A DNA stretch of 64,000 bases from Myxococcota bacterium (GTDB lineage: Bacteria; Myxococcota_A; UBA796; UBA2385). A program made the translations under genes and the position numbers. Shown one piece after another: positions 48,348 to 58,778 of this stretch. The notes under the pieces are model-generated. The model did no database searches. It was given only the letters and a program-made list of their open reading frames with translations, and was not told the origin of the DNA. Every line of letters starts with the position of its first letter. Position 1 is the stretch's first letter. The stretch is from contig JBIJDH010000008.1 in NCBI GenBank assembly GCA_044344255.1, forward strand, positions 192,001 to 256,000. The letters are read 5' to 3'.

Positions 48348-49769
48348 GTGCCCGACTTCCGCAGCTACCTGGAGCTCTCTGAGGAGGGCGGTGGTTCCCA
48401 CAAGTTCTACGAGGTCGTGATCGAGGGCACCACGCTCACGATCCGCTACGGCCGCATCGGCGACAAGGGGCAGTCCCAGGTCAAGGCCTTCCCGAGCTTC
48501 GAGAAGGCCAAGGCAGAGGCGGACAAGAAGATCCGCGAGAAGGCGAGCAAGGGCTACGCCGCCGCGGTGCTGGGGGAGCGTAAGAAGCGCACCGTCACCC
48601 GCCGCGAGGTGGTCTCCCGCCCCTCCACCTCCCGCGCCGCCCCCGTGCTCTGGCAATTCGACTCTGGCAGCGCGGCCTTCGGCGTCTTCGTCGACGCCGG
48701 GCTCTGCTGGGTGGGCAACCAGAAGGGCAACGTCTACGCCCTCGACCACGCGGGCAAGGTCGTCTGCAATTACCAGCTCCCCGACGGCGTGAAGTGCCTC
48801 GTGGCCGACGGAGAGTGGCTCTACGCCGGCTGCGACGACGGCAACGTCTATGACCTCACGAGCAAGGCGCCGCGGGTGGCCTACCGCATCTCCGAGAGCG
48901 TCGACATCCTCTGGATCGACATCAAGGACGGCGTGCTCGGCGTGGGCGACACCGGCGCCCAGATCAGCGTCTTCAACCACGAAGAGGAGACCTGCTGGAC
49001 CCAGAAGCAGCAGGGTGGCTACGGCTGGATGGTGCGCTGCGACGAGATCGGCGTCTACTTCGGCTGCGGGGCCCGGGTGACGATGTACGACTGGCAGGAC
49101 GGCCGCGTCGTCTGGGAGCACGCGCTCGGCGGCGGGGTGCTCTTCGGCTGGCAAGAAGAGAGCGCGGTCTACGCGGCCTGCGGCGACAACCTGATCTACA
49201 AGGTGTCCAAGCGCGGTGAGCGCCTCGCCACCTACCGCTGTGACGCCGGCGTCTTCTCTTGCGCCACCGCCCCCGACGGCGCCTTCGTCTTCGCCGGCGA
49301 CAACAGCTCCTCGATCTACTGCTTCGACGCCGAGGGCAAGCGCCTCTGGAAGGTGGGCACGGGCGCCGGCTCGGCCCTCTCCATGCAGTTCTTCGGCGAT
49401 CGGCTCTTCATCGTCACCTCCGGCGGGGCGCTCTGCTGCCTCGACGTGCGCGCCGAGGCCATCGCCGCCGCCGAGCAGGGCACCGTGCCGGTGATGCTGA
49501 AGATCGCCGCCCCCACGGCACCTGCGGTCCAGGTGAGCACCACCGTCGAGACCACCGCCACCGCCGGCAGCGGCGTCGTGGTGGAGTGTGTCGAGGTCGG
49601 CAGCCAGCTCCGGGTGCGGCCGGTCGGCGCCGGCTTCCACGCCGACTGGTTCGTCCAGTTCCCGAAGGACCTCCGCGTCGTCGGCGCCCGCTACGTGGTG
49701 GCGGAGCTCCGCGAGTCCAGCCGCGGCGGCTTCTACCGGGCCTTCGGCGAGATCAAGAAGCTGGGATGA
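48348..49769 (+). CDS. WGR-domain + PQQ/WD40-like beta-propeller protein (first gene of retron operon)
   Basis: YLEL...SHKFYEV...IRYGRIG..GQ...EKASKGY (WGR). Repeated G.VYALD..G.V.. and G.RLW blades. Stop overlaps the next ATG (ATGA 49766-49769). Confidence 0.85.
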   Translation: MPDFRSYLELSEEGGGSHKFYEVVIEGTTLTIRYGRIGDKGQSQVKAFPSFEKAKAEADKKIREKASKGYAAAVLGERKKRTVTRREVVSRPSTSRAAPVLWQFDSGSAAFGVFVDAGLCWVGNQKGNVYALDHAGKVVCNYQLPDGVKCLVADGEWLYAGCDDGNVYDLTSKAPRVAYRISESVDILWIDIKDGVLGVGDTGAQISVFNHEEETCWTQKQQGGYGWMVRCDEIGVYFGCGARVTMYDWQDGRVVWEHALGGGVLFGWQEESAVYAACGDNLIYKVSKRGERLATYRCDAGVFSCATAPDGAFVFAGDNSSSIYCFDAEGKRLWKVGTGAGSALSMQFFGDRLFIVTSGGALCCLDVRAEAIAAAEQGTVPVMLKIAAPTAPAVQVSTTVETTATAGSGVVVECVEVGSQLRVRPVGAGFHADWFVQFPKDLRVVGARYVVAELRESSRGGFYRAFGEIKKLG

Positions 49770-52700
49770 AGCTCCTCGACCAGCGCATCCTCGTCTGGCG
49801 GGACGGCAGCGTCGACCGCATCCACGAGGTCGACCTGCTCGAGCTCTCCCCCGGGCGGGCCGTCGTCAACTTCCGCTACGGCAAGCGGGGGGGCCCCCTC
49901 CGGGACGGCTCGAAGACCCCGATGCCCGTGCCCCTCGAGCAGGCCCGCGCCCTCTTCCTAAGAGAGATCGCCGCGAAGATCGAGAAGGGCTACGTCGAAG
50001 ACACAAGCGCGGTGCCCGGCGGTGGGGCCGAGCGCCCGCCGCCTTCGACGGCCTCTCCGCCCGCCGCCGCGCCGACGCTGCGGGCCGTTCCGCCTCCCCC
50101 TCCGCCCTCGGGGGCCGGCCCCGAGGGCGCCCTGCTCCGCCGCCTCGCCGAGGGGGAGCGCCCCGCCGCGCCCGCCACCCCCGACCGCCCCGCGACCTTC
50201 CTCCGCGGCTCGGCCGGCATCGTCGCCCGCCAGCGCCGCCGCGTCCGTAAGCCCCGCCCCCTCTACCGGGTGATCGAGCGGGTGGGGGAGCTGCGCCTGG
50301 AGGCGGCGCTGCCCTACCTCTTCGACCTCCTGCCACGCGCCGACGTCCGTCTCGCCTATGTGATCGCGGGGGCCCTCGGGCGGATCGGCGGCCCGGAGGC
50401 CTCCGCGGCGCTCGTCCCCCTGCTCCAGCACGCGGACGAGCCCCTGCGCCGCCGCGCCGTCGAGGCGCTCCGCTTGCACGCCCCGCCCGAGGCGCGGGTG
50501 GGCCTCGCCGAGTCCCGCACCGACCGCCTCCCCGAGCCCCTCCGCGCCGCCGTGAAGAGCCACCGGCCCGAGCGGGTGGCCGACGAGGTCACCGCCCTGC
50601 TCGCGGAGCCCAGCCTCGAGCGGGCCATGCTGCTGGGCGAGCTCTACCTCATCGACAGCGAGGCCGTCCGCCCGGCGCTGCTCGAAGCGGCGCGCACCCT
50701 CCCCCTCCGCCCGCCCTTCCTGCGCGTGCTCCGCCACCTGTTCAAGGCCGCAGAGTACCGCCGCGATCCCGCCCTCTGGGGCACCCTCGCCTGGCGCTTC
50801 GAGACCACCCGCGCCGCCTTCCGGGTCGGCAAGCGGATCGGCAGCGGGCGCTTCGGCGAGCGGGTCGTGAACATCTCGTTGAACGGCGAGCGGAAGACCC
50901 AGGTGATGTCCCGCATCGGCGCCGCCGACAGCGCGCTCGGGTACAGCGACCGCACCCGCAAGTACCTGCGCATCCGCTGCTGGCGCCTGCTGCGCCGGCT
51001 CGGCCAGGATGGCGGCCCTGACTACGTCCGAATGGCCGTCGGCGCCCTCCTGCCCTGGACCGACGCCGACCGCGTCGAGCCCCGCGTCCAGCCCGGCCTC
51101 GAGGCCGCCCCGCCCACCTCGGGCGCGCGGGGTCGCGGGCCGATGCTCTCGGTCCCCTATCCGCTCTTCCACAGCCTCGTTCACGGCAACAGCGGGCGCT
51201 TCCTCCGCTCCAAGCGCGGCAGGATGGCCTGGCTCCCGGCCAACGCTCCGAAGACCGGCATCCCCCGCGAGGAGGCCTTCGCCGAGCTCTGGGACCGCGC
51301 CCCCGCCGGCCTCCTGCATCTCCTCGCCGAGAGCCGCTGTGAGGCGGTGCACGTCTTCGCGGTGCGGGCGCTCCAGGCGAACGCCCCCTTCGTAGACACC
51401 CTCGACAAGGGCGTGGCGCTCATGCTGCTCGAGCGGCCCTACGAGGGGACGGTGGCCCTCGGCCTCAAGGTCGCCCGGCTCCGCTGGCCCCCGCAGGGGG
51501 ATCGTGACCTGCTGCTCGCCGCGGCCCACGCCGCCCACCTCCCGGCCCGCAGCCAGGCCTGGCAGTGGATGAGCCAGTCGCCACACCTGCTCGCGAACGA
51601 CAGCGACGGCATCGCGACCCTCCTCTCCGGGCCTTGGAGCGACACCCGCGCCGTGGCCCGTCAGCAGCTCGACCGGATGGTGCTCGCGCCCGACCTCGCC
51701 CGGGCCCTGGTGGTCCGCCTCGTCTCGAGGCTGTTGCCCCTCCGCGGACCGGCGGCGGCGGACGTGGTCGCCGCCCTCGGGGGCCCGCTCGAATATTCAT
51801 TCGTGACCGTCGGGCTGAGCGTCCTCCGCGATCTCATGGCCCACCCCGAAGAGGCTGTGCAGGCCCTGGTGGCGCGGGTGTTGGCGGCGCGGCCCGCCGA
51901 TCAAGAGGCCGCCCTCGGCCTCCTCCTCCGATCCACCTTCCCGGCCATCCGCGCGACCGCCCTGTCCTGGCTCGACGGGCTCGGCGTCGAGGCGCTGCTC
52001 GCCCGCCCGGGGCTGCTGCTCGCCCTCGCCGCCAGCGCCGACCCCCTCCTCCGCGAGCGCGGCCTGCTGCTCGCCCGTTCGGCCGTCGAGAGCGGCGGGG
52101 GCGACAACGGCGGCGCCGCTGACCTCGCCCTCGCCGCGACCGCGCTCCTGCTCGAACCGCTCCCCGCCGGGGCCCCCACCGGCCTCGTGAGCCTGCTCGA
52201 GGCCCTGCCCGACGCCGCCCTGGCGGACATCCCCGAGGAGCGGCTCCACGAGCTCCTCCGCTCCAAGCGCCCCACCGCCGTCGAGGCCGGCGGCCTCGTC
52301 CTCGGGGCCCTGCCCGCCGATCGAGCCCTCGATCCCGCGCTGTACCAGCTCGTCCACCACGAGGCCCGGCGGGTGCGCGAGGGCCTCCTCCGCGCGCTCC
52401 AGCGCCGCGCCTCCACCCTGTCGGGCGCGCTCGCCGAGCTCACCCCCCTCACCGACTGCCGTTGGCCCGAGAGCCGAGAGGGCCTGTTCGCCCTGCTGCT
52501 GCGCCTCCCCGCCGAGGCCTGGACGGTGGAGCACCTCTCCACCCTGTCCGACTCCAACCGCCCCGACGTACAGCGCTTCGCCGTGCAGATCATCCAGCGG
52601 GCCACCCCGCCCGGCCAGGAGGCGCCCCTGCTCCGCCGCCTCGCCGAGCACCCGAGCCCGCGCATCCAGTCCGTGGCCGTCAGCCTGCTCGAGGGCGTCG

Positions 52701-52987
52701 CCGAGGGGGCCGCCCTCATCCCCGAGCTCGAGCCCTTCTTTCGTGTCCTGCTCGGGCAGATTGGCCGCGCCACCGCAGCGCGCCTGCGGCTGCAGGCCTG
52801 GCTGCTCCGGGCCGCCCTCGAGGAGGAGACCGCCGCCCGCGTCGCCCTCTCGGTGCTCGGCCCCCTCTCCGCCACCACCGCCATCGAAGACCGAGCGCGC
52901 ATCATCGAGGCCCTCGCGGCCCTGCGACGCCGCTGGCCCGCCCTCGAGGGCCCCCTCCGACCCATCCCCGTGGAGCTGCGCGCATGA
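49766..52987 (+). CDS. WGR-like + HEAT/ARM-repeat protein (retron-associated)
   Basis: N-terminal VNFRYGKRG...AKIEKGY. Pro-rich linker. ALGRIGG.EA..AL..LL HEAT repeats. FKAAEYRRD...RFE. LSDSNRPDVQRFA and LAEHPS. ATGA overlaps at both ends. 1073 aa from ATG 49766. Confidence 0.85.
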   Translation: MKLLDQRILVWRDGSVDRIHEVDLLELSPGRAVVNFRYGKRGGPLRDGSKTPMPVPLEQARALFLREIAAKIEKGYVEDTSAVPGGGAERPPPSTASPPAAAPTLRAVPPPPPPSGAGPEGALLRRLAEGERPAAPATPDRPATFLRGSAGIVARQRRRVRKPRPLYRVIERVGELRLEAALPYLFDLLPRADVRLAYVIAGALGRIGGPEASAALVPLLQHADEPLRRRAVEALRLHAPPEARVGLAESRTDRLPEPLRAAVKSHRPERVADEVTALLAEPSLERAMLLGELYLIDSEAVRPALLEAARTLPLRPPFLRVLRHLFKAAEYRRDPALWGTLAWRFETTRAAFRVGKRIGSGRFGERVVNISLNGERKTQVMSRIGAADSALGYSDRTRKYLRIRCWRLLRRLGQDGGPDYVRMAVGALLPWTDADRVEPRVQPGLEAAPPTSGARGRGPMLSVPYPLFHSLVHGNSGRFLRSKRGRMAWLPANAPKTGIPREEAFAELWDRAPAGLLHLLAESRCEAVHVFAVRALQANAPFVDTLDKGVALMLLERPYEGTVALGLKVARLRWPPQGDRDLLLAAAHAAHLPARSQAWQWMSQSPHLLANDSDGIATLLSGPWSDTRAVARQQLDRMVLAPDLARALVVRLVSRLLPLRGPAAADVVAALGGPLEYSFVTVGLSVLRDLMAHPEEAVQALVARVLAARPADQEAALGLLLRSTFPAIRATALSWLDGLGVEALLARPGLLLALAASADPLLRERGLLLARSAVESGGGDNGGAADLALAATALLLEPLPAGAPTGLVSLLEALPDAALADIPEERLHELLRSKRPTAVEAGGLVLGALPADRALDPALYQLVHHEARRVREGLLRALQRRASTLSGALAELTPLTDCRWPESREGLFALLLRLPAEAWTVEHLSTLSDSNRPDVQRFAVQIIQRATPPGQEAPLLRRLAEHPSPRIQSVAVSLLEGVAEGAALIPELEPFFRVLLGQIGRATAARLRLQAWLLRAALEEETAARVALSVLGPLSATTAIEDRARIIEALAALRRRWPALEGPLRPIPVELRA

Positions 52988-54633
52988 TCGTCGAGCACGC
53001 CTATCGGGGCCGGTCCCGGGTGCTGGGCGGGGCCCGGTCCACCTCCCTCTCCTTCGCGCCCGACACGCTGCGCGAGCCCACTCGGCTCGTCGCCGAGCTT
53101 CGCCGCCCCCTGCCCTTTCGCGAGGCGATCAGCGCGCTGCACGACGTGGTGGTCTCGAACCTCCGCTTCGTCCCGAAAGACCGCACCGCCTGGCGCGCCT
53201 GGCTGGCCGAGCAGGGCGACCTCCTCGACTGGCGCGGCATTCACAGCCAGCGCGCTCGGCTCGACGAGCGCATCCGCACCTTACAAGCCGAGCTCCAGGA
53301 GCTCAACCTGCGCCGAGAGGCCCGGGGCCGGACCTGGAAGGACGCCGAGCGAAGGTACTTCAATTATCTGTACGAGCGTGACCGAGACGCCTGGATCGTG
53401 CTCGACCCCGTGATCTCCGTGCACCCCGACGAGGTGCTCTTCGAGTGTTTCTCCGAGGACGAGAGCAGCTATGGCCGCCTGTCGGTGGTCCACGACGAGC
53501 TCGCCCGCGAGGGGGAGGTGGCCTACGGCACCACCAACATCGACTACTCGGCGCCGCTCTATGAAGAATTCCAGAAGATCCGCTCCTACAAGCGCACCCG
53601 CCTGTCGGTAGACCCCCAGGGCCTCGGGGTGCAGCAGGGAGAGGCCGCCGCCTATCGAGAGGAGAAGATCGACCTCCCGGAGAGCTGGGTGCGCGGCTTC
53701 CTCCAGGTGAGCGCCGCGATGGGCATGGAGGCCACGGTCCTCGATCTCCAGCCGATGGACGTCCACGCGCTGCTCTTCGCGCTGCGCCGCCGGCGCGAGA
53801 AGAGGGGCCCCCGCTCGCTCCGCTTCCGCCTGCGGCCGGGGCAGCCGGTGTCGGTGGTGGTCGAGCCCTGGTTCCAGGAGCTGACCTTCCCCCGCAGCCC
53901 ATACACCGGAAACGTCGAGACCGAGGTGCGCCTCTGGGGGCGGCGCCGGCTCTTCATCCTCGAGCGGCTGCTCCCCTGGGCCCGGAGCGTGCGGCTCCAC
54001 CTGCTCGGCACCGGCCTCCCCTCCTTCTGGGAGGTCGACCTCGGCGGGCTCCGCTTCACGCTCGGCCTGTCCGGCTGGACGGCGAATGACTGGTCCCGGG
54101 CCGGGCACTTTGACCTCCTCGCGCCCCGCGGGCGGGTCGACGACAACACGGCCGTGCGCGTGATCGACGCGCTCCGCCGCGCCTGGGTCTCCGACGCCGA
54201 CAGCCTCTCTCGCACCCTCGGCCTCGACCGCCCGACGGTCCTCTCCGCCCTGCTCGGCCTCGCGCAGGCCGGCCGCGCCATCCCCGATCTCGGCACCGAT
54301 CGCTGGCGCGCCCGCGAGCTCACCCGCGAGCCCTTGCCGCTGGCCGCGCTGCGCTTCGCCGACCCCCGCGAGGAGCTGGCCCGCGGTCTCGTCAACAGCC
54401 GCGCCGTGAACATGCGCCGCCCCACGCTGGCCGCGGACGGCAGCCTCGAGGTGGCCGGCACCGTCCGCGGGGAGGAGCGCCTCTACACCGTGAGCCTCGT
54501 CCTCGACGCCGATCAGCGCATCACCGACGGGAGCTGCGGCTGCAGCGCCTTCACCCACAACCGGATGCGGAAGGGGCCCTGCGCCCACATCCTGGCCCTC
54601 CGGATCCGCCACGGACAGGGCGGTGTCGCGTGA
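52984..54633 (+). CDS. Winged-helix + SWIM zinc-finger protein (retron-associated)
   Basis: LDPVISVHPD...FECFSEDESSY, GTTNIDYS, DLPESWVRGFLQV, LGLSGWTANDW. wH-like LGLDRPTVLSAL..L.QAGR. SWIM CGC-x12-CAH at 54535-54588. Confidence 0.88.
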   Translation: MIVEHAYRGRSRVLGGARSTSLSFAPDTLREPTRLVAELRRPLPFREAISALHDVVVSNLRFVPKDRTAWRAWLAEQGDLLDWRGIHSQRARLDERIRTLQAELQELNLRREARGRTWKDAERRYFNYLYERDRDAWIVLDPVISVHPDEVLFECFSEDESSYGRLSVVHDELAREGEVAYGTTNIDYSAPLYEEFQKIRSYKRTRLSVDPQGLGVQQGEAAAYREEKIDLPESWVRGFLQVSAAMGMEATVLDLQPMDVHALLFALRRRREKRGPRSLRFRLRPGQPVSVVVEPWFQELTFPRSPYTGNVETEVRLWGRRRLFILERLLPWARSVRLHLLGTGLPSFWEVDLGGLRFTLGLSGWTANDWSRAGHFDLLAPRGRVDDNTAVRVIDALRRAWVSDADSLSRTLGLDRPTVLSALLGLAQAGRAIPDLGTDRWRARELTREPLPLAALRFADPREELARGLVNSRAVNMRRPTLAADGSLEVAGTVRGEERLYTVSLVLDADQRITDGSCGCSAFTHNRMRKGPCAHILALRIRHGQGGVA

Positions 54634-54661: not shown

Positions 54662-54918
54662 CGATAAGCCACCCCTGCAACCGCGGTCTCTGGCGAGCCT
54701 TGCAACCCGGCCGGCGCTTCGCCGTCCTTGCGACCCGCTTCGTCATGCGTCACTGGCCTGCTCATCACCGGGCGGGGCCACGCCCTGGTGGGGCGGATGC
54801 GGTCTGGCTTCCGAGAAGCCAGGCACGCCCCACCAGGGCCGGCCCCGCTTCAGTCGAGCGAGTCCAGTCCCGAGCCTCCTCGAAGACCCCAGAGACCGCG
54901 GTTGCACCTATCTTATCG
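54662..54918 (+). ncRNA. msr-msd: Retron msr-msd non-coding RNA
   Basis: Perfect 18-bp terminal inverted repeat TGCAACCGCGGTCTCTGG (54676-54693) / CCAGAGACCGCGGTTGCA (54889-54906), extended by CGATAAG/CTTATCG. Short msr hairpin 54709-54727. Long msd hairpin 54752-54868. Lies directly upstream of a retron RT. Confidence 0.88.
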
Positions 54919-54940: not shown

Positions 54941-56515
54941 ATGAGCGAGAGTGAGCGCGAGAGAGCGAGCGAGAGACCCCGCTCCCGGCAAGCGATCTAC
55001 GATCACATCCGAGCCTCGTCCAAGGATGAGTTCATCCGCGAGGACATGGTGCGCCTCGGCTTCTGGCCGAGCCGCGAGCCCCGCCCGAGCGACCCCGCCG
55101 AGGAGCAGCGGCGCCGCGAGGAGATCTTGCGCGAGCTCCGCGCGCTCCAGACCGAGGGCTCCCGCCTCAAGGACGAGGCGAAGCTCAAGGCCGAGGCGCG
55201 GAAGCAGCGCATCGAGGCCAGCCGGGCCAAGCAGCAGGCGAACAAGGCCCGACGCGCCACCGATCGAGCGGCGGCCGCGGAGGCGTGGCGGGCCCGCGGC
55301 GAGTCCGAGCTGCTCTACCTCGGAGCGGGCGCCTCGGCGGGCCTCGGGCCCACCGGCACAGCGGCCACCGGCACAGCGCACCCCTCGCTCCCCGCGTTGG
55401 AGGGGCCCCTGTCGCTCGCCCGCTGGCTCGGCCTCAGCATGGGCCAGCTCCGCTTCCTCGCCTTCCAGCGCACGGTGAGCCGGGTCTCTCACTACGCCCG
55501 CTTCCGCATCCCCAAGAAGACCGGCGGTGACCGCCTCATCTCCGCCCCGATGCCCCGCTTGAAGGCCGTGCAGCACCGCATCGCCACGGCGCTCCTCCGC
55601 GAGGTGCCGGTGCACGAGCGCGCCCACGGCTTCGTGCCCGGCCGCTCGATCACCACCAACGCCGCCCCCCACGTGGGCGCGGCCGTCCTCGTGAACCTCG
55701 ATCTCCAGGACTTCTTCCCCTCGATCCACTGGCGGCGGGTGCGGGGCGTCTTCCGAACGCTCGGGTACTCCGAGGCCGTATCGACGGTGCTGGCGCTGCT
55801 CTGCACCGAGGCCCCCGTGGAGGCCTGGGAGCTCGACGGTCAGCGCTGGTTCGTGCAGACGGGCCCACGGGCGCTGCCCCAAGGTGCGCCCACCTCCCCC
55901 GCGCTCACGAACCTCCTCTGTCGGAGCCTGGACAGACAGTGTGAGAAGCTGGGAGAGCGCCTCGGCTTCACCTACACCCGATACGCCGACGACCTCACCT
56001 TCTCCTCGACCGATCCCGAGGCCCGGGTGGGCGCCCTCCTCTATCGCCTCCGCAAGGACCTCGATCGGCACGGCCTCACCGAGCACCCCAAGAAGACCCG
56101 GGTGCTCCGACAGGGTCGGCGCATGGAGGTGACAGGCCTCATCGTCAATCACAAGCTGGCGGTTCCCCGAGAGGAGCTCCGGCGTTTCCGGGCGGTCCTC
56201 CACAAGATAGACCGCGCCGGGCCCACCGGGGCCGAGTGGCGCCCCGGGATCGAGCTCTGGGCCGGGCTCCGCGGCTTCGCTGGATACGTCTTCATGGTCG
56301 ATCCCGCGCGCGGTCAGACGCTGCGAGACCGGGTCGAAGAATTGGCGGGTCGATACGAGGTGAAGGCGCCCGCGCCCGTGGTGAGGAGCGCCCCTGTCGC
56401 GGCCCCCGTGGTCGCGCCGGTGGTGACGGCGGCTCCAACGGTCACTGCGCCCCTGCCCGAAGTCGCGCCCGCGCCGGAGCCGCCGGCGAAGAAGCCGTGG
56501 TGGAAGCTTTTCTAA
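54941..56515 (+). CDS. Retron-type reverse transcriptase (myxobacterial Mx162/type XIII-like)
   Basis: IPKKTGGDRLISAP, AHGF, region X NAAPH (55658-55672), LDLQDFFPSI, LPQGAPTSP, YADD (55982-55993), region Y VTG (56129-56137). Helical N-terminal extension (SSKDEFIREDMVRLGFWP). Track start 54728 lies inside the ncRNA, so ATG 54941 is preferred. Confidence 0.95.
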   Translation: MSESERERASERPRSRQAIYDHIRASSKDEFIREDMVRLGFWPSREPRPSDPAEEQRRREEILRELRALQTEGSRLKDEAKLKAEARKQRIEASRAKQQANKARRATDRAAAAEAWRARGESELLYLGAGASAGLGPTGTAATGTAHPSLPALEGPLSLARWLGLSMGQLRFLAFQRTVSRVSHYARFRIPKKTGGDRLISAPMPRLKAVQHRIATALLREVPVHERAHGFVPGRSITTNAAPHVGAAVLVNLDLQDFFPSIHWRRVRGVFRTLGYSEAVSTVLALLCTEAPVEAWELDGQRWFVQTGPRALPQGAPTSPALTNLLCRSLDRQCEKLGERLGFTYTRYADDLTFSSTDPEARVGALLYRLRKDLDRHGLTEHPKKTRVLRQGRRMEVTGLIVNHKLAVPREELRRFRAVLHKIDRAGPTGAEWRPGIELWAGLRGFAGYVFMVDPARGQTLRDRVEELAGRYEVKAPAPVVRSAPVAAPVVAPVVTAAPTVTAPLPEVAPAPEPPAKKPWWKLF

Positions 56516-56530
56516 ACGAGACCGGCTTCG

Positions 56531-58612
56531 TCACTCCTCCTCGACGCAGGCCCCCGCGAGGTCCATGTTCCAACCCGCGAAGGGCCGAGCCTGCTTGATG
56601 AAGAGCTGGGGCTCCCCCGGCACGTACTTGTCGTCGAACTTCCAGTCCACCTCGAGGGCGTACCAGTCCCCGTCGCCGCCATAGGCCTCCTGGAAGAAGC
56701 TGTGGATGGAGTCGAGCGCCACACCGAGCTCATAGGCCTCCTCGTTCGTGAGCACCGTCTCCCCCTCCGCGACGAGGGAGCTGTGCTGGATGTAGACGAT
56801 CGGCTGGCCCGGATAATAGAAGTAGTGGAGATAGGCGTCGGGGAGGAGGCCGAGCTCCGGGGTGACCACGTCCTCGCCGCCCACCTGCGCGTTGACATAG
56901 AAGGCAGGCTCGAGGCCGGAGGTGTCATAGGGGTTGTTGGTCAGCGCCACCCCGTTGGACTCCTCCTCCGGGAAATTCGGGTGGACGAGGAGGCCCATCC
57001 CGACGTCGAGGTGGTTCATCGAGTAATAGTCCCGCTCCTCATAGGCGCGGGGGTTCCAGACTTGGGACCACACCTTCTTCACCGCCCACTCGATGGAGTC
57101 CGAGCCGTCGCCTGCGATGTCGGGGTCACCCGTCTCGGAATTGTAGAGGCCGGCGCCGGTGAAGGCACCGAGGTCCTCTGAGTTTGTGCTGGAGCGGAAG
57201 CGGGCGTCCTCCCCCGGAAACATCTCCACGGCCTTGGCGCGGATGAGCTCGACCACCTCGGGGCGCATCGGCATGTCGCGGAGCTCGTCCTTGAAGTCCT
57301 CAAGGGCCTGGGTGCGATAATCGGGATCGGCCCACTCCGGGGAGGCCATCATCTCTTCGATGTGCACCCACAGCCCGTTGTCGGTCATGAACTGGTCGTA
57401 GTAGTACATCGGGATGGCGAAGCCCGGCTGCACCGGGATGGGCGACCCGAGCGCGGCGGCGTCCTCCAGGGCGCCATAGTTGGTGGCCTTGGCCCCGAAG
57501 ATCGGGATGGCGCCCGAGATCGCCTCGCCGAGCGGGAGGGCGTCGAGGTCGAGGATGTCGACGTTGTCGCGCAGGTCGGTGACGCTGAGGTCCATCGGCT
57601 GCACGACGAGGGGCTCGGGGCGGTGGTCCAACCACCAGGCCTCAGCCTCCTCGGCGCTGATCTCCTTGATCTCCCAGTCGAAGGCGCCCACGGTGAGCTC
57701 GACCCACTTGCCCTCGAGGGCCTGGAGCTCCGCCGCCGCCTGTGCGTCTCTCAGGGCCATGTTGGGCGTGCCCCGGTTGACGGACAGCACGTTGATGTGG
57801 GCGAGCGGCGTCTGGAACTGGGCGGTGATGATGCCGGCGACGATCGAGATGTCATTCGGGACCGCGTCGAGGACCACGACCTCCCGATAGGGCGTATAGC
57901 TGCCGTCCACCTCTTCGGCGGTGCGGAAGGAGAGGATGCCGGTGGTGGTGCCGAGGTTGAGCGGCTGATAATCCACTCCGGCGTAGAGCTCATCGGTGGA
58001 GACGAGCTTAACGTCGGCGGGGAGGTCGAGGGCCATCCGCTCCACCGCCTCGCTCGTGGGGTGGAAGCGCAGCTCCTCGCCCATCCAGGCGCTCGCGGCC
58101 ACCCGGCGATAGGCCGCGGCGACCATGTCGGCGCTCGCGGTGTCATAGGGGGATATCTCATAGACCCACAGCCCCGGCCCCTCGTAGCGGGAGACGGCGC
58201 CGAGGAGGAAGCGACGGTCCGGGCTGTAATACTCGGTGGTGTTGAAGGTTCCGAGGTCGGGGACGATGGGGAGGCCGTCCCCCGAGAGGTGGGTCGAGCA
58301 GAAATCCCAGTGGACACAGTACCGTTTCGAGTTCTGAAAATAGAGCGCGTCTCCGTCCAGGCGATCGATGACGGTCTTGACCGAGGTGGCGCCGGGGATG
58401 CTCGAGTCTGCGGGCTCGCTCGACAGGGCGAGGTAGTCTGCCTCACAGCCGAGCTGCTGGGCGAAGTCGGGATCGGCGCCCTCGGGGATGAGGCAGTCCC
58501 AGCCCGGGACGGCGCTGTCATCGGCGGGGGTGGAGCCGCCGCCCTTCGGGCCGGGCGGATCATCCCCACACGCAGAGACAGACAGCACAACCAGGATCGC
58601 GAGACGAGTCAT
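56531..58612 (-). CDS. Lipoprotein with PEP/pyruvate-binding (PPDK N-terminal, ATP-grasp) domain
   Basis: Lipobox VSAC, TPLAHINVL...RGTPN, FGAKATNY, PGFAIP, RFRSSTNSEDL..FTGAGLY, EVDWK, KQARP. GAGG RBS. Confidence 0.85.
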   Translation of the reverse strand: MTRLAILVVLSVSACGDDPPGPKGGGSTPADDSAVPGWDCLIPEGADPDFAQQLGCEADYLALSSEPADSSIPGATSVKTVIDRLDGDALYFQNSKRYCVHWDFCSTHLSGDGLPIVPDLGTFNTTEYYSPDRRFLLGAVSRYEGPGLWVYEISPYDTASADMVAAAYRRVAASAWMGEELRFHPTSEAVERMALDLPADVKLVSTDELYAGVDYQPLNLGTTTGILSFRTAEEVDGSYTPYREVVVLDAVPNDISIVAGIITAQFQTPLAHINVLSVNRGTPNMALRDAQAAAELQALEGKWVELTVGAFDWEIKEISAEEAEAWWLDHRPEPLVVQPMDLSVTDLRDNVDILDLDALPLGEAISGAIPIFGAKATNYGALEDAAALGSPIPVQPGFAIPMYYYDQFMTDNGLWVHIEEMMASPEWADPDYRTQALEDFKDELRDMPMRPEVVELIRAKAVEMFPGEDARFRSSTNSEDLGAFTGAGLYNSETGDPDIAGDGSDSIEWAVKKVWSQVWNPRAYEERDYYSMNHLDVGMGLLVHPNFPEEESNGVALTNNPYDTSGLEPAFYVNAQVGGEDVVTPELGLLPDAYLHYFYYPGQPIVYIQHSSLVAEGETVLTNEEAYELGVALDSIHSFFQEAYGGDGDWYALEVDWKFDDKYVPGEPQLFIKQARPFAGWNMDLAGACVEEE

Positions 58613-58778
58613 CCACACCTCGACCCCGGGCGAACGGACCAGGGCTCCGCTCCCAGTATGCCCCGGCAGGACCCAATATGCCTTGGCAGGCCGCCGCCCG
58701 AGCGCGATTTGAGGCCCCCGCGGCGACCTCGCGCGCCCCGGCTGGTTACCGGGCCGGCGCACGCCCCCGGGAGACCCG

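Follow-up and report, generated by a model that had tools for sequence, protein, structure and literature searches.

A type XIII (clade 10) retron locus of the Ne144 group in a Myxococcota genome and its probable msr-msd template RNA

Retrons are bacterial enzyme systems that turn an RNA into a small single-stranded DNA copy. The locus described here lies in a 64,000-nucleotide stretch of a Myxococcota genome (the window), and comprises four protein-coding genes and one non-coding RNA (ncRNA) gene, all on the plus strand, in the order WGR-propeller, WGR-HEAT, SWIM, ncRNA, reverse transcriptase (RT). The first gene (48348–49769) encodes a 473 aa protein with a WGR domain and a beta-propeller (Pfam WGR, 1.3e-19; PQQ_2, 2.5e-11), which matched none of the PADLOC families. 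It is followed by a 1073 aa WGR-like and HEAT/ARM repeat protein (49766–52987; PADLOC WGR_XIII, 5.4e-209, and HEAT-ARM_XIII, 2.9e-29; Pfam HEAT_2) and by a 549 aa SWIM_XIII protein (52984–54633; PADLOC SWIM_XIII, 3e-209), these first three genes overlapping by 4 nt each. Searches of the three partners with Pfam, PADLOC and NCBIfam identified no toxic or effector domain.

The RT gene (54941–56515) begins with an ATG 35 nt beyond the a1 arm of the ncRNA and encodes a 524 aa clade 10/type XIII retron enzyme with a long N-terminal extension (PADLOC RT_XIII, 7.1e-166), scoring 550.8 bits against 312.2 for the next model. The RT motifs NAAPH, YADD and VTG are found at 240, 348 and 397. Its C-terminus has a linker rich in Pro and Ala, then the tail KKPWWKLF; several relatives show matches to the tail region (55003–56515). 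A gene with a PPDK_N (PEP/pyruvate-binding) domain lies convergent with the RT on the minus strand (56531–58723).

The msr-msd ncRNA gene occupies positions 54662–54918, where the outer limits include a 7-bp outer stem. A preliminary description had set out its stems in detail and they are indeed all present, since base-by-base checking found each of the seven arm pairs to be exact reverse complements. These are the outer pair (54662–54668 with 54912–54918), the 18-bp perfect part of the a1/a2 repeat (54676–54693 with 54889–54906), one pair in the msr (54712–54716 with 54720–54724) and four in the msd (54752–54756 with 54864–54868, 54772–54779 with 54841–54848, 54782–54795 with 54826–54839, and 54804–54811 with 54815–54822, closing a CGA loop at 54812–54814); GCTC starts at 54760 and GAGC at 54856. 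Taken in full, the a1/a2 arms extend over 54676–54701 and 54883–54906, each including a short inner segment (CTT at 54699–54701 and AAG at 54883–54885), and the msd hairpin covers 117 nt (54752–54868), with a conserved base and an upper stem that is variable in sequence.

The first point to consider is whether such a structure could arise without any connection to the RT. Among the 139 perfect inverted repeats of the window (at least 10 bp, arms within 400 nt), the 18-bp repeat is the longest and the only one above 14 bp. Two other repeats match the 14-bp msd stem in length, and so neither it nor the stems of 4–8 bp are remarkable alone; at the 72% GC content of the window, each of the shorter stems taken singly is what chance would give. 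In favour of reading the spacer as a terminator, a REP-like repeat or a GC-driven chance fold are the high GC content, the occurrence by chance of stems of up to 14 bp and the Rfam search, which at gathering score gave no match in the 64-kb window, the TypeXIIIB_Ne144 model being absent at that score. However, the 271-nt segment folds at −150.8 kcal/mol compared with −108.1 ± 5.4 for its shuffles (z = −7.96), with none of the 200 shuffles as good, and no terminator-like site was found at the ncRNA. A sigma-70 promoter scan also returned no sites. Both the ncRNA and the RT are single copy, no further copies being found in the genome by BLAST or profile searches.

Homologues of the window RNA are present at 39 of 89 other RT loci. 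Leaving out seven near-duplicates, an alignment of 33 copies (the window and 32 homologues) showed two-sided compensatory change in 37 of 45 consensus pairs (RNAalifold), with 92.2% of cells paired, as against 70.0% for shuffled and 36.6–40.7% for slid controls; these pairing and covariation figures lean upward, the sequences being related and the alignment having also supplied the structure. No conservation of sequence is seen in the a1/a2 arms (identity 0.43–0.46), which pair best with their own partners, at a mean of −36.8 kcal/mol compared with −18.8 kcal/mol with the partners of other copies, the own partner being ranked first in 28 of the 33. The msd hairpin is 113–117 nt long in 30 copies and 124 nt in the other three, with an identity of 0.86–0.87 at its base versus 0.52–0.56 in the upper stem. 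The homologues at RT loci, the own-partner pairing of a1/a2 and the covariation refute a terminator, REP-like or chance origin, to which we give next to no probability.

The hairpin of the msr was proposed to span 54712–54724. It is present at that place, although its extent was underestimated, as the homologue consensus is longer (54709–54727, eight pairs around a loop of 3–4 nt). In this hairpin 99.2% of cells are paired, and five of the eight pairs show two-sided change. It is a probable RT recognition element, judging from what is described for Eco1 and Eco3 in PMC6868368. A candidate second msr stem (54728–54733 with 54745–54750) is paired in only 69% of cells and contains one invariant G-C.

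Thus the structure is real and conserved, and the retron is of a kind that is already classified. The general features of a retron are present, namely an RT with NAxxH, YADD and VTG motifs adjoining an ncRNA, an a1/a2 repeat, and an msr and long msd with covariation. So are those of type XIII: a clade 10 RT, a cluster-114 SWIM/winged-helix protein with the motif Dx7[D]x4Ex30-32Dx37E, and an upstream WGR/HEAT-ARM gene, an accessory that many but not all type XIII members carry. The type XIII of Mestre et al. (2020; PMC7736814) likewise combines an RT, a SWIM/winged-helix/DEDE-like protein, a WGR-HEAT protein and an ncRNA beside the RT, whereas the WGR-beta-propeller gene of the window is absent from the type XIII clusters in Table 1 of that paper. 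From these sequence features, positions 54662–54918 are very probably the msr-msd template RNA gene of an Ne144-group retron of type XIII (clade 10), and would serve as the template for its msDNA.

The closest named retron is Retron-Nex2 (Ne144) of Nannocystis exedens. Its RT (AAL40743.1) is 51% identical to that of the window over 451 aa and similar in length (514 versus 524 aa), both having an N-terminal extension, and its msDNA, 144 nt by its name, is close in size to the 133–139 nt predicted here; this likeness is drawn from the RTs and the msDNA sizes. A quick tree was built from 48 selected RTs, with SH-aLRT values and no bootstrap, and in it the 28 loci with this ncRNA type all share one clade, which also takes in RT-Ne144 (SH-aLRT 95). 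A larger tree of 98 rows gave a clade of 56 loci with this ncRNA type and three without an ncRNA match (support 93). The window RT sits on a long end branch, with a top identity of 59% among the 120 best-scoring homologues listed, and a match to this system at the level of Nannocystis was not found among 401 and 31 genomes (best 61%). None of the 12 matches in the PDB was a type XIII structure, all being other retron RTs.

Clade 10 also includes loci with a CAGC motif, whose msr hairpin resembles that of the window and whose RT is likewise of clade 10. We presume these to be Mx162/Sa163-like, a label given from the motif rather than from a reference sequence. In the RT tree they branch separately (support 98), and their ncRNAs (L182, L184, L188 and L191) were unmatched by a profile of the window RNA. 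The CAGC motif used for the label is that of PMC6868368. At eight further loci (L082, L185, L190 and L194–L198), a clade 10 RT comes directly or almost directly after the SWIM gene, and the ncRNA search gave no match nearby; the RNA of these loci may be located elsewhere. The element had been put forward as a new long-stem retron, of which the long msd hairpin stands and the newness is overstated, since it belongs to type XIII and the Ne144 group. At least 4,824 related RTs exist, and the locus as such is ordinary, type XIII being both classified and already mined for tools.

Where conservation in the homologues departs from the earlier account is in the register of priming. G54695 or G54697 had been suggested as the branching guanosine, with copying from about 54888. 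Both bases are G in the window, yet no more than 14 and 17 of the 33 copies, respectively, retain them, compared with 33 of 33 for G54702, and the linker that contains them has an identity of 0.46 versus 0.97 for CTTGCAA. Indeed, T54700, T54701, G54702 and C54703 are invariant in all 33 copies. The inner CTT (54699–54701) can pair with AAG (54883–54885) in 31 to 33 of the 33 copies for each pair, which extends the a1/a2 stem inward to G54702. Its columns barely vary in this set, and the CTT/AAG segment therefore gives little covariation.

G54702 is kept in 13 of 13 sequences, including five divergent relatives (L030, L033, L035, L181 and L199; L187, being identical to L035, is not counted separately) in which the G is in register. 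Two of these, L035 and L181, have TTAGC at the branch position. TTAGC is the canonical and commonest retron motif. In four of the five, a helix of 4–5 bp ends directly before the G, and its partner strand follows a CG at a distance from the G of 176–181 nt, the distance in the window being 181 nt; the innermost pair in the divergent relatives is A:T, G:C or C:G versus T:A elsewhere, and has thus changed on both sides. The fit is not uniform, as L033 has only three inner pairs and L199 a 6-bp alternative partner.

There is, however, evidence pointing the other way. The minimum-energy fold of the window buries G54702 in a helix with 54728–54733 (G54702 pairing with 54731), forcing the CTT/AAG pairing costs 3.0 kcal/mol, and the competing helix is also possible in 32 of the 33 homologues. 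In the same fold the 3′ arm takes up G54695 and leaves G54697 unpaired just inside the stem, as might suit priming from G54697 (GAGC) or from G54695, just inward of the 18-bp arm, and GAGC is given in PMC6868368 as the motif of Retron-Mxa2/Mx65. Against this stand the poor conservation of both bases and the TTAGC of the divergent relatives, which is in register with G54702, and we regard priming from either of the two as improbable. Judging from its invariance, the predicted branching guanosine is G54702, in TT-G-C, and we hold this assignment with good though not complete confidence.

With G54702 as the branch, the conserved register of the inner a1/a2 pair places the msDNA start at 54882 instead of 54888. 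The predicted msDNA (54744–54882, minus strand) would have its 5′ end opposite G54882 and its 3′ end at an estimated 54750–54744, so that a length of some 133–139 nt is expected from the homologue register, in agreement with the roughly 140 nt given originally. From retron biochemistry we infer that the RNA ends would pair through the 18 bp and the inner CTT/AAG, and that the RT would bind the 54709–54727 hairpin, prime from the 2′-OH of G54702 and copy from G54882 back to about 54750–54744, yielding a branched hairpin msDNA of 133–139 nt. On this analysis we have high confidence that the RT would make a branched hairpin msDNA.

The partner proteins bear on what such a molecule might do. SWIM_XIII has a CxCx12CxH zinc finger at residues 518–535. 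Of the residues of its Dx7[D]x4Ex30-32Dx37E motif, D141, D149, E154 and D187 fit, and the last Glu, E226, is one residue off the spacing; all five are invariant in 35 of 35 sequences. An AlphaFold2 model built with these 35 sequences (pLDDT 75.7) matched PCNA and other sliding clamps over residues 34–366 (Foldseek E about 1e-9; against PCNA, Z 18.1, rmsd 3.0, 235 residues aligned), with winged-helix matches at residues 384–449. The N-terminal part is therefore predicted to have a PCNA-like clamp fold, in contrast to the transposase-derived nuclease proposed for the type XIII SWIM protein in PMC7736814. A shared fold alone does not establish function, and the trimer prediction for the clamp domain (score 0.00) speaks neither for nor against a trimer.

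Of the 301 genomes of the phylum, seven carry the propeller gene; each of these is one of the 42 with RT_XIII, and in five of the seven the gene lies upstream in the same operon. In metagenomes it adjoins type XIII parts at 15 of 80 loci, or 5 of 18 when the count is limited to loci flanked by 5 kb or more on each side. It is placed upstream, between SWIM and ncRNA, or, in cyanobacteria, convergent downstream, and often stands away from the retron. By these linkage counts the gene is an optional partner, though one that recurs. Literature searches on WGR or propeller proteins with an RT, or on a retron with a clamp, found nothing relevant beyond Mestre 2020.

One possible function is that the SWIM protein, through its predicted clamp fold and winged helix, would together with the WGR scaffold proteins hold the msDNA hairpin, of fixed length and free sequence, as a DNA decoy, and that phage proteins disturbing this decoy would set off a defence response, as in other retrons. 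From the analysis, we put such a decoy and defence role at about an even chance. RT_XIII occurs in 42 of the 301 genomes; within the family, 3 of 21 other genomes have close relatives at full length, and several other phyla also include close relatives. This patchy presence is a pattern typical of defence systems. We found no demonstration of phage defence by a type XIII retron in the literature searched, including the portion available of 10.1101/2020.06.21.156273. Alternatively, the msDNA may serve the host, for instance in sensing DNA damage or replication stress through the clamp-like and WGR proteins. Type XIII is described as partly vertically inherited, with domestication suggested (PMC7736814), the codon GC3 of the four genes (0.90–0.95) is near that of two neighbours (0.93 and 0.97), and an exact-match search for the msr motif in viral contigs gave no matches; the modelled clamp fold of the SWIM partner may also be counted for a host role. 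Set against the patchy presence, a host function seems to us the less likely reading, though a serious rival.

The decoy and defence role can also be put in a narrower form, which we offer tentatively and rate as doubtful, somewhat below the host function. Here the msDNA would be a ruler-like decoy of 113–117 nt onto which the PCNA-like clamp would load from the open tip without a loader, its state would be read by the WGR-HEAT protein and the optional WGR-propeller protein, and the range of decoys would be broadened by tandem arrays of 2–5 ncRNAs per RT. If true, reading a ruler decoy would supply a mechanism for the oldest known retron family and would be the first clamp-based retron sensor. 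No mechanism for type XIII function was found in the literature searched, and the wider value of the locus lies in a testable idea of this function, built on the partner with the predicted clamp fold and on an msDNA hairpin of conserved length.

Several ncRNA units occur in 3 of the 57 loci with an ncRNA match (L136, L001 and L002), compared with one in the window. Five complete msr-msd units precede a single RT in L136 (8598–9810), and two do so in each of L001 (7448–7927), L002 (7463–7932), L210 (8037–8551) and L211 (8273–8806). In the 301 genomes of the phylum of genome G318, two tandem units were seen in three of six with a motif match. The tandem units have a common msr, and their upper msd stems vary. 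A literature search for natural ncRNA arrays found nothing relevant beyond Mestre 2020.

Metatranscriptome contigs lend weak support to the ncRNA being a discrete, abundant RNA. Contigs with no differences to the ncRNA and confined to it (54688–54900, 54701–54879 and 54675–54859) came from three of four runs, in two studies, and the fourth run gave a near-identical contig at 54515–54670; all are strandless, from runs found via this stretch itself and possibly including DNA. The RT, SWIM and flanks are mostly uncovered in these runs, and the contigs cannot rank the genes. One run (X1) held four more short contigs (174–219 nt) at 54697–54734, representing related ncRNAs of other organisms.

The locus had also been suggested as a tool for ssDNA production. 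This is borne out for type XIII as a class, which has already been tested in this way, but tool novelty is low and the RT–RNA pair of the window stands as a prediction. In the census of Khan et al. (PMC10849725), 17 type XIII rows correspond to 16 retrons built and tested, and clade 10 is reported there among the best RT-DNA producers. One of its retrons, Mestre-1710, originates from Vandammella animalimorsus (PMC10849725), the species of locus L032, which carries this ncRNA type; the link is by species, not by RNA sequence. Elsewhere, the type XIII retron Tsp1 is described as giving editing above 10% in V. natriegens (PMC12262390), and a 2026 survey (PMC13712802) reports 143 type XIII candidates, classed as the expansion of a known type. 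The practical value is that the corrected register (putatively G54702, with a start opposite 54882) would apply across the Ne144-like group, and that the variable upper msd stem offers a natural site for a donor insert. Finally, one contig (L091:8817–14269; G130:C79) carries two type XIII systems from different RT branches, with RT facing RT.
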